Source: a virus. From it: 64,000 nt of DNA. The stretch spans positions 4,140 to 68,139 of the IMG/VR virus record IMGVR_UViG_3300023270_000001; one strand, written 5' to 3'. Shown piece by piece: positions 179 to 3,102 of this stretch. The notes beneath the pieces are model-generated. The model searched no databases and was not told where the DNA came from. It saw only the letters and a list, made by a program, of their open reading frames with translations. The position numbers and the translations under genes are program-made. Within the stretch, counting starts at the first letter, position 1; each line of letters begins with the position of its first letter.

Positions 179-931
179 CTAGAACACCACCACGTGGCCT
201 GGGTCGGTGATTACCCACCGCTCCACACCGTCCTGGGTCACCTGTCCCACGTTCCCCTCGTGCACGTCGCCGATGAAGATCCTCTGTTCATCGAACACCC
301 GGAGGACGCCAGCGAACAGGTCGGCGATCGGCTTGACGGCCGACGTGATGATGTCCTGCACGCTGGCGCGCCAGATCTTGATCTCCGGGGCGACCGCCGA
401 CAGGTCGCCCTTGGTACCTCGCTTGCTCATCTTCCACACCTTGACGAGCACGAAGGCTGCCGACCGGTGCTGCTCATTGATGAGATACGTCGCGACGTCT
501 CCTTTCATGTCACCGAAGGCGGCGTAAACGTCGCCCACGTAGTTTGCGCTGTCGCGCCAGAGGAGCCAGACCTTCTCTCCTTTGAAGGTCTGATCCGTCT
601 CGAGGATGTCGTAGTAGCGGACGCAGATCGGTGCTACGAGAGTGGCGGCGATCTCTCTCGCGAACTCGGCCTCAGTGTCATCGGAGGTGAGCTTCAAGAC
701 AACGGTGTCGTCGAGCGTCGGCATGACGCATCCGAAGGCACCGCAGCCGTACTCCTTCATCTCGGCCTTCATCACCACCGTCTTGGACCTTGGCGTGGCC
801 TTACCTGACGATACCCTCGTCAGTTTCGGCAGCCAGTCCGGCCGCACGCGGACCTCGAGTGACTCGTACGCATTGGCCAGCAACTGCGTTGCCCATGGCG
901 GGTTATCGACAAACGTTCGCGAGCTCACCAT
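179..931 (-). CDS. Protein-kinase-like (ePK/APH fold) protein
   Basis: Gly-loop YGCGAFGCV, VVLK lysine, catalytic GDVHEGNV, DPG in place of DFG; start placed at ATG 931, 7 nt below a TAGGAT hexamer (ORF track extends to 1024). Confidence 0.7.
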   Translation of the reverse strand: MVSSRTFVDNPPWATQLLANAYESLEVRVRPDWLPKLTRVSSGKATPRSKTVVMKAEMKEYGCGAFGCVMPTLDDTVVLKLTSDDTEAEFAREIAATLVAPICVRYYDILETDQTFKGEKVWLLWRDSANYVGDVYAAFGDMKGDVATYLINEQHRSAAFVLVKVWKMSKRGTKGDLSAVAPEIKIWRASVQDIITSAVKPIADLFAGVLRVFDEQRIFIGDVHEGNVGQVTQDGVERWVITDPGHVVVF

Positions 932-937
932 GGATGG

Positions 938-944
938 TATCCTA
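938..944. promoter_or_regulatory. Overlapping divergent -10-like hexamers (TATCCT on +, TAGGAT on -) between kinase and integrase
   Basis: Only 22 nt separate the two inferred start codons; TAnnnT hexamers on both strands. Confidence 0.35.
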
Positions 945-953
945 CCGCTGTCG

Positions 954-1838
954 ATGGAAATCACCGAGCACAACCTCGCGAAGTTCCGCTCCTGGGTCCT
1001 CGACCGCGGACGCTCCAGCGGCACGGCCGCGCTCTACGTGTCGAACCTGAAGTCATGCGCCAAGGACCGCCAACTCACCCGCCGCCTCGTGGCCGGCCGC
1101 TTGGCGCCGAACTCGCTGCGGACCAATATGGCTGCGTTGCGCGCGTGGGCGAAGTTTTCCAAGAACCCGGAGATGGCCGAGGTGCTCAAGGACATCCGGC
1201 TCCCACCGGCTCGGCGTCTGAGCACCAAGCAGCCGCTCGACCTCGAGCAGTGGCGCGAGGTCATCCGGCATATGCAGACGTGCTCGATGCGCAACGAGGC
1301 GATGCGCCAGGTATTGCTCATCATGGCCATCCGCGGACTCCGCTGTAGCGACGTCCTACGCATGCGGAGCGACGACGTCCTGAGGGCGCTTGCCACTGGC
1401 AAGCTCGTCTACGAAGGCAAGGGACGCAAGCGCATGGAGATCTCGGCCGAGCCCATCCGTAAGCAGTTGCGCGAGCTCGCCGTATTCCAGGACTGGGAGC
1501 GCGTCCGCGATCTCATCAGCGCGTCGAAGAACCCCGAGGTGGCCCGGGTGATGGTGTACCGCGCGGCGAAGCGGACCGCTGCCAAGGTCGACATCATCAA
1601 CATGTCGCCGCACCGCTACCGGCACACGTTCGCGGCGAACTATCTGAGCCAACTGGCGGGCGACCCGAATGCGATCGTGAAACTGCAGCGGTACATGGGG
1701 TGGGAGAGCATGGAGACCGCAGCGCGCTACGTGAGCGCGGTGTCGCAGGACGAGCTCGACAACATCGGCGCTGGCCTGGTGAGCGGTCTACTCAAGGCGC
1801 CAGCCGTGGCCGATCGCGCCAAGCGCAAGCGACGGTAG
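954..1838 (+). CDS. Tyrosine recombinase / integrase
   Basis: Catalytic set GLRCSDV (R), HRYRH (HxxR), MGW, ARY (Tyr); start inferred at 954 (930 alternative). Confidence 0.85.
   Translation: MEITEHNLAKFRSWVLDRGRSSGTAALYVSNLKSCAKDRQLTRRLVAGRLAPNSLRTNMAALRAWAKFSKNPEMAEVLKDIRLPPARRLSTKQPLDLEQWREVIRHMQTCSMRNEAMRQVLLIMAIRGLRCSDVLRMRSDDVLRALATGKLVYEGKGRKRMEISAEPIRKQLRELAVFQDWERVRDLISASKNPEVARVMVYRAAKRTAAKVDIINMSPHRYRHTFAANYLSQLAGDPNAIVKLQRYMGWESMETAARYVSAVSQDELDNIGAGLVSGLLKAPAVADRAKRKRR
1390..1402. repeat. Palindrome TTGCCACTGGCAA, copy 1 (inside integrase)
   Basis: Exact match read from sequence. Confidence 0.9.
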
Positions 1839-1952
1839 CCCCGATCCAGCCGTCCGACGTTGATGGAGCGCCGCAGCGTACTCTACTCCATGGAAGCCCG
1901 CTCAACCTGAGCTACTGCCGGACCGGGGCAGAGTCATGGTACACCACGGCCA

Positions 1953-2303
1953 ATGCAATTCCAAATTCATGTCGGCAAGTCTCGCAACCTCGGTCCCATT
2001 CAGTTGTTCTCGGCGTTCGACTCCATCGGATCGCCGAACAACGTGCTCGACACGACCTCGCCGATCGTCGCGAGTTGCCCGAGCGAGCGCTGTCGCGTCG
2101 GCGTCCTCGCCGATGGCCGGACGGTGTATATCGACGGGGTGACCGAATCGCCCGGCCCCATCAACGTGAACATCAACGCCCTCGGCAAGCAGGCGACCAT
2201 CCAGGTCGAGGTGGTGGCGGCCGAGCCGCCGCAGTTTCCGGCGGCGATCGTCGTCGACACGTCGATGGTCAGCCCCGAGTACACGACTCCGGCCACGCGC
2301 TGA
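1953..2303 (+). CDS. Hypothetical beta-rich (Ig-like?) protein
   Basis: Protein-like composition with alternating hydrophobic strands. Confidence 0.55.
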   Translation: MQFQIHVGKSRNLGPIQLFSAFDSIGSPNNVLDTTSPIVASCPSERCRVGVLADGRTVYIDGVTESPGPINVNINALGKQATIQVEVVAAEPPQFPAAIVVDTSMVSPEYTTPATR

Positions 2304-2322
2304 GGCGTGCTACGGTCTGGGG

Positions 2323-2472
2323 ATGAAGAACACCAGACCACGCGTCGCCCTGAAGCTCGAGACCATCCGCACGCTCCGCCCGGCCAACCTCACGCAGGTG
2401 GCGGCCGGGGTGGTGGCGACGAGCAAGCAACCATGGTGCAGTGACACCTACAGTGCCAGTTGCCCCAAATAG
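2323..2472 (+). CDS. 49-aa RiPP (lanthipeptide-type) precursor-like peptide MKNTRPRVALKLETIRTLRPANLTQVAAGVVATSKQPWCSDTYSASCPK
   Basis: Hand-translated, below the ORF-track cutoff; leader LKLETIRTL...L.QVAAG; Ser/Thr-rich core with two Cys. Confidence 0.6.
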   Translation: MKNTRPRVALKLETIRTLRPANLTQVAAGVVATSKQPWCSDTYSASCPK

Positions 2473-2532
2473 GTCAGCGCAGCGACCTCAACGCCTGCGA
2501 CTAACAGCGCCGGCGCCGAAACGATGAAAGCC

Positions 2533-2676
2533 GGGTAACGGCTCGAGTCTGTTGAATGTAGGTCCCGGATGGTGCATCCCCTTGCCATCCGACGTTACTC
2601 GGCGGACTGAGACACCGAGCCAAATACACCCTGTCCTTGGGGTCTCCCCGAGGCGCTATGGTTCGAGCCGCTACCC
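2533..2676. ncRNA. Candidate multibranch structured RNA
   Basis: Closing stem 2533-2546/2663-2676 (13 of 14 pairs) enclosing hairpins 2566-2591, 2598-2619 and 2635-2653. Confidence 0.45.
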
Positions 2677-2727
2677 GTAGTGTCTTCTTACCACGGATAC
2701 ACCAGCAGATGGTACGGTGTATCTCAC

Positions 2728-3102
2728 ATGGCGAACCACAAGGAATCTGCGACGTATTCACGGCGGAGCCGACTGGCACCGCACCTCAATCCGGAGCATC
2801 AGCCGCCGCGCTCGCAGTCGTCGGCGCCGTTCGTCGACATCGACCGACTCACGGGCGCCAACGGGATGGTCGGTATCATCAGCCAGCGTCGTCGCGACGG
2901 GATCATCACCTTCGCGATCGTCCGCGAATGGGAGACGGTGGACACCATCACCGGCGAGCCGAAGGGCATGCGCGGGTCGTTCTGCCCGTCCAGCCTCATC
3001 GGCGACTACATGAAGATGGTCGAGATGATCGGCGTCCGCATTGCCGAGCTCATCGCCAACCCGGTCGCGCTGCCGTTCCCCCTGCCAGCGGGGCGCCGGT
3101 GA
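2728..3102 (+). CDS. Hypothetical protein
   Basis: Stop overlaps the GTG of the endolysin; hairpin GATACACC/GGTGTATC just upstream. Confidence 0.55.
   Translation: MANHKESATYSRRSRLAPHLNPEHQPPRSQSSAPFVDIDRLTGANGMVGIISQRRRDGIITFAIVREWETVDTITGEPKGMRGSFCPSSLIGDYMKMVEMIGVRIAELIANPVALPFPLPAGRR

Follow-up and report, generated by a model that had tools for sequence, protein, structure and literature searches.

A class I lanthipeptide precursor-like gene without modification enzymes beside the integrase of a soil bacterial virus

Within the window, as the whole stretch of 64,000 nucleotides of viral DNA analysed here is called, a tyrosine integrase gene, ORF116, a 49-codon peptide gene, a non-coding stretch of 255 nt, ORF124, the gene of a GH25 endolysin with a PG_binding_1 domain, and a DSP-like phosphatase gene follow one another on the plus strand. 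The integrase (930 to 1838, plus strand) was recognised by PF00589 (E 9e-14) and by PHROG integrase families; its frame is open from position 642 and its start is uncertain. ORF116 (1953 to 2303, plus strand) encodes 116 amino acids; 19 nt separate its end from the peptide gene, which occupies positions 2323 to 2472 of the plus strand. Neither ORF116 nor ORF124 (2728 to 3102, plus strand) matched a family in Pfam or PHROG, and for ORF116 an all-beta structure was predicted at low confidence (AF2, pLDDT 47). A kinase-like core gene with a product of 250 amino acids lies on the minus strand at 179 to 931. Its motifs GxGxxG, VxLK, DxHxGN, and DPG are invariant in four viruses, a pattern which fits a protein-kinase-like or APH-like fold, and the product is possibly a protein-kinase-like enzyme which has diverged strongly. 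At E<=0.01 it matched nothing in Pfam or PHROG, one homologue gave a weak match to APH_6_hur (E 0.059), a sequence profile search of the PDB returned nothing relevant, and the AF2 model (pLDDT 46) was too poor for a fold search. Between positions 726 and 934 the protein matches to a distantly related virus (G003, see below) of the integrase on the plus strand and of the kinase-like gene on the minus strand have about 200 nt in common at their 5' ends, both starts being uncertain.

The window corresponds to bases 4140-68139 of the 86,414-bp viral contig IMGVR_UViG_3300023270_000001 (G000), which carries direct terminal repeats, has a completeness rating of 100% and a GC content of about 65%, and comes from a soil bacterial virus. 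No tRNA genes were found in it. Its sister virus G001 measures 81 kb and is syntenic at about 90% nucleotide identity. Two distant relatives, G002 and G003, were retrieved via the capsid gene (about 45% capsid identity), and each represents a complete genome with terminal repeats. With a degenerate pattern for DNA which encodes the leader motif of the peptide, one more viral record, G004, was obtained; it is a 30-kb tailed-phage fragment with a portal protein and is unrelated to the G000 clade. A DNA search of the INPHARED phage collection with G000 gave no match, and a viral collection baited with the genes flanking the peptide returned the sister virus alone. Two scans of 185,579 bacterial species-representative genomes, the second with a very strict pattern, found neither the peptide nor a prophage copy, and a search of JGI metagenomes with the peptide alignment found nothing.

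The peptide gene starts with ATG at 2323 and ends with the stop codon TAG at 2470-2472, giving a product of 49 amino acids. This agrees with the original prediction, which had proposed here an open reading frame of that length with six Ser/Thr and two Cys in its core. Several independent features speak for a coding function. The GC content at codon positions 1, 2, and 3 is 0.53, 0.57, and 0.84, the third-position value of the confident genes of the virus being 0.84-0.90. The codon-usage log-odds of 0.21 corresponds to the 14th percentile of in-frame windows of 49 codons and to the top 5% of off-frame ones. In the sister virus the frame is intact, with 14 substitutions in 147 nt which are distributed 3:3:8 over the codon positions; it is free of indels, whereas the flanks have one of 1 nt (8 nt upstream) and two of 5 nt (just downstream). 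The Nei-Gojobori dN/dS is 0.21 (8 synonymous and 6 non-synonymous changes), as compared to 0.20 for ORF116 and 0.08-0.12 for core genes. The alternative frames yield values of 0.8-1.5, except for the antisense frame with the same wobble position, which is interrupted by a stop. A chance or non-coding open reading frame was ruled out by GC at the third position, dN/dS, the indel pattern, and the distant homologues described below, and the gene has already been called in public gene catalogues. Because an endolysin is encoded two genes downstream, a holin or lysis peptide was also considered, and was rejected since the peptide has no hydrophobic span. A point against the reading favoured below is the lack of a canonical Shine-Dalgarno sequence, a run of G being all that precedes the ATG in the window copy; a clear Shine-Dalgarno sequence is, however, missing from about half of the genes of this virus too, and the corresponding gene in G003 has AAGGAG at the right distance from its start. 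Judged by these sequence comparisons, 2323-2472 is a real gene which is kept under purifying selection on the virus.

Searches covering about 15 billion proteins yielded four protein variants of the peptide. Three near-identical ones (P0001-P0003) came from a word-indexed search among 5.8 billion proteins. The fourth, P0004, is a distant homologue which was detected when 1.84 billion representatives were searched exhaustively with phmmer; it has 47 amino acids, is 67% identical, and is encoded on a 78,182-bp ENA/Logan contig. A further hit (P0005, 1,459 amino acids) is a repeat protein in which 12 weak repeat matches had been added up, and was discarded as an artefact. The peptide can be divided into a leader region of residues 1-29 (2323 to 2409, plus strand), with motif order and spacing common to class I LanA leaders, and a core region of residues 30-49 (2410 to 2469, plus strand). 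In the window the leader consists of the motif Phi-x-L-x-L, the motif ETIRxL, and then 17 residues to an end V-A-A-G. The core contains six Ser/Thr and two Cys in the spacing C-x7-C, both cysteines being invariant in the family, and would thus in composition be able to form (methyl)lanthionine. Between P0001 and P0004 17 of 20 residues are identical in the core and 15 of 29 in the leader, so the would-be mature part is under selection at least as strong as the leader.

The same leader was also found on peptides with unrelated cores in two other viruses. The peptide-family profile matched a peptide of G003 through its leader only (E 3e-4 per genome). This reading frame of 53 amino acids contains F-x-L-x-R, ETIRxV, and 17 residues to A-G-G, followed by a core unrelated to that of the window. 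When all six frames were scanned with a regular expression and a leader HMM, G000, G001, and G003 each proved to have a single peptide of this kind, and G002 had none. In G004 the leader is joined to a third core with three cysteines, with genes for an esterase-like protein and a WD40 protein next to it. The leaders end in A-A-G in the window, G001, and P0003, and in A-G-G in P0004, G003, and G004; the V-A-A-G end of the window is also seen in L084 and L098, two peptides from metagenomes which have this leader. That the window copy has A-A-G here in place of G-G counts against its being a LanA.

The original prediction had assigned the leader to a class known from lanthipeptide precursors of Bacteroidota and myxobacteria, and this agrees with published leaders. 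Walker et al. (2020, PMC7268733) describe a LxLxKx5L leader, often ended by GG, in class I LanAs of Bacteroidota, and LanAs of Corallococcus, Myxococcus fulvus, Archangium, Hymenobacter, and Chitinophaga from its supplementary precursor table share the motif order. The distance of exactly 17 residues from (D/E)T(L/I)R to GG, which is present in every virus peptide, occurs in two of seven published examples taken from there, one Corallococcus LanA and that of Hymenobacter; it is 3 residues longer in M. fulvus, Archangium, and a second Corallococcus LanA (PMC7268733). The window keeps the LxLxKx5L spacing as V-x-L-x-L, ETIRT, and L, with V in place of the first L and L in place of K, and this K is also missing from LanC-linked relatives such as L058. 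A profile built from four published leaders ranked the G003 peptide first (E 0.13) and the G001 peptide second (E 10) among 7,227 six-frame segments of four viruses, ranks which are supportive with E-values that are weak alone; the window peptide came only about 21st (E about 50), which counts against the LanA reading. In a protein-language-model (Atlas) search the window and G003 peptides lay nearest the same two clusters annotated as class I lanthipeptide / PF28317 (scores 0.91/0.90 and 0.88/0.87, to be taken as a lead), and a third neighbour was mostly from Myxococcota.

An HMM search for a known leader family had been suggested as a check, the absence of a hit counting against the idea, and no curated model matched. 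NCBIfam and a Pfam library which predates PF28317 gave nothing at E<=10 for the peptide and all four variants, and neither NF038153 (lant_leader_L1a) nor TIGR04149, the model for Bacteroidota GG-motif radical-SAM target peptides, matched G000 or G001 at E<=10; the Pfam scan of the virus proteome contained no radical-SAM family either. This outcome is outweighed by the direct comparisons, according to which the leader is of the type of Gram-negative class I lanthipeptide precursors and the predicted product of 2323-2472 is homologous to LanA. The known distribution of this leader and the high GC content hint at Myxococcota as candidate hosts.

In metagenomes, the leader-derived DNA pattern which had led to G004 matched at least 120 contigs, the majority of them from soil, and 80 loci were listed. 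As the pattern was built from the virus peptide, leader similarity among the matches is partly built in, which does not apply to their association with enzymes. From the 84 matches listed, 61 passed a filter for a complete small open reading frame with the leader and a short, highly variable core rich in Cys, Ser, and Thr, and a few more did so by eye; tandem arrays were seen among the metagenomic leader peptides listed. This leader type is highly abundant in soil metagenomes and comes in many forms there. A 34-residue peptide with the same leader and a core of seven residues with one cysteine occurs on two soil contigs, L035 (4164-4268) and L049. Several leader peptides, including a three-gene tandem array, have the core motif S-N-(A/G)-W-(T/S) in common (L091 151-627, L046 1557-1606, L084 6989-7038) and may represent a separate product family.

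The genes around these peptides were characterised by a Pfam scan of 107 large flanking open reading frames from 29 non-redundant loci among the matches listed. The commonest families were LANC_like (10 reading frames, best E 7e-41) and Lant_dehydr_N (8 reading frames, best E 2e-162), followed by Lant_dehydr_C, ABC_tran, nSTAND/WD40, peptidase M13, and Pkinase with 3-4 reading frames each; C39 was not among the recurrent flanking families of the 29 loci. Genes for WD40 beta-propeller or nSTAND NTPase proteins recur beside leader peptides at 3-4 of the 29 loci (e.g., L027 2905-3375) and also in G004. By clustering, LanC and/or LanB could be assigned to 11 of the 29 loci, with most contigs being only 2-10 kb long, and the usual order at enzyme-bearing loci was the peptide gene (lanA), lanC, and lanB. 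At the other 18 loci, most of them on short contigs, no Lan enzyme was found, which counts against the reading favoured below, and the same leader may also serve other pathways.

Among the loci listed, the three best matches of the window peptide were L085, L058, and L083, all of which are LanBC-linked, and these closest cellular relatives are located directly upstream of lanC. The alignments extend from residue 2-4 to residue 47 and therefore comprise the leader and both cysteines. A single pairwise BLASTP comparison of the window peptide with that of L058 gave 34% identity over 44 residues (E 5e-8). In the multiple alignment both cysteines are invariant, and K-x-P-x-C-x-(D/N)-T-x-x-(A/N)-S-C, with the same C-x7-C spacing, is common to the window, L058, and L085. 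The cellular relatives have an extra tail containing cysteine which the virus peptide lacks. Leader class, relatives adjacent to lanC and lanB, and core alignment together bear out the proposal of a lanthipeptide-type precursor on a virus.

The enzymes which accompany these relatives were not found in the viruses. It had been noticed that the window lacks Lan enzymes and a transporter, and Pfam, six-frame, and profile searches extended this to the whole 86-kb genome. A Pfam scan of 106 open reading frames over all of G000 gave 26 families at E<=0.001, and the 25 of these which were listed include no RiPP enzyme, ABC transporter, or radical-SAM protein; a PHROG scan of this genome agreed in finding no such enzymes. 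Six-frame searches revealed no LANC_like, Lant_dehydr_N, or Peptidase_C39 (PF03412) in G000 and G001 and no LANC_like or C39 (PF03412) in G004. Profiles for LanC and LanB constructed from the metagenomic enzymes yielded only noise (E>0.07) in the six frames of G000-G004, while the LanC profile found the family from which it was built at E<1e-70. LanM, LanKC, and LanL each contain a LanC-like domain, and the lack of such a domain in the viruses therefore excludes the enzymes of classes II-IV as well. A position beside LanB and LanC is thus a feature of the nearest cellular relatives which is found in none of G000-G004.

The neighbourhood of the peptide gene was compared between related viruses. 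ORF124 has homologues in G001, G002, and G003, and the integrase is conserved in G002 and G003. In the latter two viruses integrase, ORF124, and phosphatase occur in the same order, ORF116 is absent, and the peptide is lacking at this site; integrase and ORF124 thus form the boundaries of a variable cargo slot. The slot (window 1838-2728, G003:C1:22190-22864, and G002:C1:61722-62545) is occupied by different, unrelated small genes in each virus and constitutes a cargo hot spot. The leader peptide of G003 is encoded about 5 kb away from it, between a parB homologue and a conserved gene. A homologue of ORF116 which is 64% identical (P0008) is encoded on a 78,182-bp ENA/Logan contig with the same length and sources as that of P0004, so ORF116 and the peptide very probably travel together. 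Going by this comparison of gene order, the peptide and ORF116 are exchangeable cargo beside the integrase.

Two further observations concern the downstream boundary. A non-coding stretch of 184 nt (2537 to 2720, no strand assigned) is identical in G000 and G001. It is the second-longest perfect run in 13.5 kb averaging 90% identity, and similar perfect runs occur elsewhere. Its fold z-score is -2.6, it has no match in Rfam, and only about 15 nt of it, directly upstream of the ORF124 homologue, could be recovered in G002/G003. It may be the 5' leader or regulatory RNA of an operon of ORF124 and the endolysin, or part of attP; for a tRNA-derived attP, ARAGORN and Rfam found nothing in it. In G003 (G003:C1:21233-22252) the ORF124 homologue abuts the phosphatase with no GH25 endolysin gene between them, such a gene being present in G000, G001, and G002.

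The homology to peptides encoded next to lanC and lanB, the leader-core architecture, the behaviour as cargo, and the absence of the enzymes from complete virus genomes are best accounted for by a virus-borne LanA homologue which is matured by LanB, LanC, and an exporter of the host and serves the lysogen as cargo, an explanation which we favour as moderately probable. The LanA homologue has left its operon and is carried, together with its 116-residue partner, by a temperate virus of 86 kb. In an infected or lysogenic cell LanB and LanC of the host would recognise the familiar leader, serines and threonines of the core would be dehydrated, and thioether rings would be closed onto the two cysteines. 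A host protease/exporter for GG leaders would then release a peptide specified by the virus, from which the lysogen might benefit, for example as a bacteriocin-like weapon or as a signal. This presupposes a host which possesses LanBC, enzymes which accept the virus peptide, and export of the product, all of which we infer, as we do the role of the mature peptide as a weapon or signal for the lysogen; maturation by host machinery would be the simplest mechanism. A broader reading, which is held tentatively and which we would put a little short of even, starts from the leader common to the peptide of this virus and those of G003 and G004, whose cores are unrelated. Viruses of soil bacteria would carry stand-alone LanA genes as swappable cargo, with one leader and different cores chosen by the virus, and would reprogram LanB and LanC of the host without any viral enzyme.

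The GG-type leader and the two cysteines, which could form a disulfide, would also suit an ordinary double-glycine-leader peptide free of Lan modification. Such a peptide would be cut and exported by a C39-peptidase ABC transporter of the host and act as a disulfide (C-x7-C) bacteriocin or a signal between cells, possibly in deciding between lysis and lysogeny. The adjoining integrase gene is in line with this, as are the 18 of 29 same-leader metagenomic loci with no Lan gene in reach and the ABC-transporter genes which recur nearby. It is unlikely, however, considering that the closest cellular relatives among the loci listed are directly upstream of lanC and that a C39 domain was found neither in G000, G001, and G004 nor among the recurrent flanking families. 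In addition, the leader peptide of G003 is encoded beside parB and not beside an integrase, and no receptor-like gene co-varies. A virus which brings the substrate only, without enzymes, might instead use the leader as a decoy which occupies LanB and LanC or the exporter and blocks a lanthipeptide of the host, for example an anti-phage one, the core being functionless. Anti-phage lanthipeptides are on record (bioRxiv 10.1101/2024.06.26.600839, PMC12360287). A pure leader decoy would be expected to have a leader better conserved than its core, and the reverse is seen here; cysteine positions are retained across the family and the cellular relatives, and the gene is located in a lysogeny-associated cargo slot and not among early genes, all of which makes a decoy distinctly unlikely.

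A dN/dS about twice that of core genes, the restriction to a very small virus clade, and the lack of the peptide in G002 might point to a relic, taken from a lanthipeptide operon of the host and no longer processed, with no role or with an unrelated one as a small intracellular protein. The low dN/dS in absolute terms, the intact length, and the 67% identity kept where the partner gene retains 64% nevertheless speak for a maintained function, and the same leader type occurs independently in two other viruses (G003 and G004), so that a relic is quite improbable. Finally, the original prediction had proposed that the kinase encoded at 179-931 acts on serines and threonines of the peptide, and the analysis lends no support to this. 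Kinase-type motifs are kept in four viruses and one homologue has the weak APH-type match, and the protein might accordingly be imagined to phosphorylate the core, as in the chemistry of class II-V lanthipeptides, or to make a phosphopeptide. It is encoded by a core gene, however, which is also present in G002 with no peptide at all and is not adjacent to the peptide in G003, and it has no significant family or structure match. The relatives of the peptide belong to class I operons, class I lanthipeptide chemistry relies on glutamylation by LanB and not on phosphorylation, and the virus has no lyase or cyclase partner. A role of this protein in maturation is therefore extremely improbable.

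Complete RiPP and bacteriocin clusters on prophages are already known. A literature search, which was not exhaustive, turned up no description of a virus with the precursor gene of a lanthipeptide alone. If maturation by host LanB and LanC is true, a precursor-only gene would make for lysogenic conversion at very little cost, with about 150 bases redirecting an enzyme system of the host to a new product. Genome mining which starts from the enzymes would overlook such products, the peptide repertoire of a lysogen could shift with its viruses, and the LanBC enzymes involved would have to tolerate foreign cores. The virus peptide together with lanA-lanC-lanB operons of the L058/L085 type offers a testable pair.

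Several known systems resemble this arrangement in part. Prochlorosins have many scattered precursor genes, the products of which are processed in trans by one synthetase. The virus peptide is like them in that the precursor gene is apart from the modifying enzyme and that one leader is combined with diverse cores. Prochlorosins belong to class II (ProcM), have Nif11-type leaders, and their precursors are encoded in the same cellular genome as the enzyme, in contrast to the precursor described here, which is encoded on a virus. The sublancin locus of the Bacillus prophage SPbeta likewise represents a gene for a GG-leader ribosomal peptide which a temperate phage carries as cargo for lysogenic conversion, and phages reportedly carry interbacterial weapons encoded by biosynthetic gene clusters, as the title of one study puts it. 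SPbeta contains a complete pathway with modifying enzyme, exporter, and immunity, whereas this virus carries the precursor and one gene for 116 amino acids only. The arbitrium peptide AimP of Bacillus phages (PMC12360287) is also a small secreted-peptide precursor of temperate phages encoded near lysogeny genes. AimP has a Sec signal and an adjacent receptor gene, AimR (PMC12360287), whereas the virus peptide has a LanA-like leader of the GG type, is not accompanied by a co-varying receptor gene, and differs in position between related viruses. The likeness to the class I LanAs of Gram-negative bacteria with the leader LxLxKx5L...GG (Walker et al. 2020, PMC7268733; pinensin group, RODEO family I 17, and related ones) comprises the order and spacing of leader motifs and a short Ser/Thr/Cys core. 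In contrast to these the virus gene is unaccompanied by LanB, LanC, and a protease/exporter, its leader ends in A-A-G in the window, and NF038153 does not match it. Its nearest relatives among the loci listed are situated directly upstream of lanC-lanB and differ from it in their longer cores with three or more cysteines, the core on the virus being shorter and having two.
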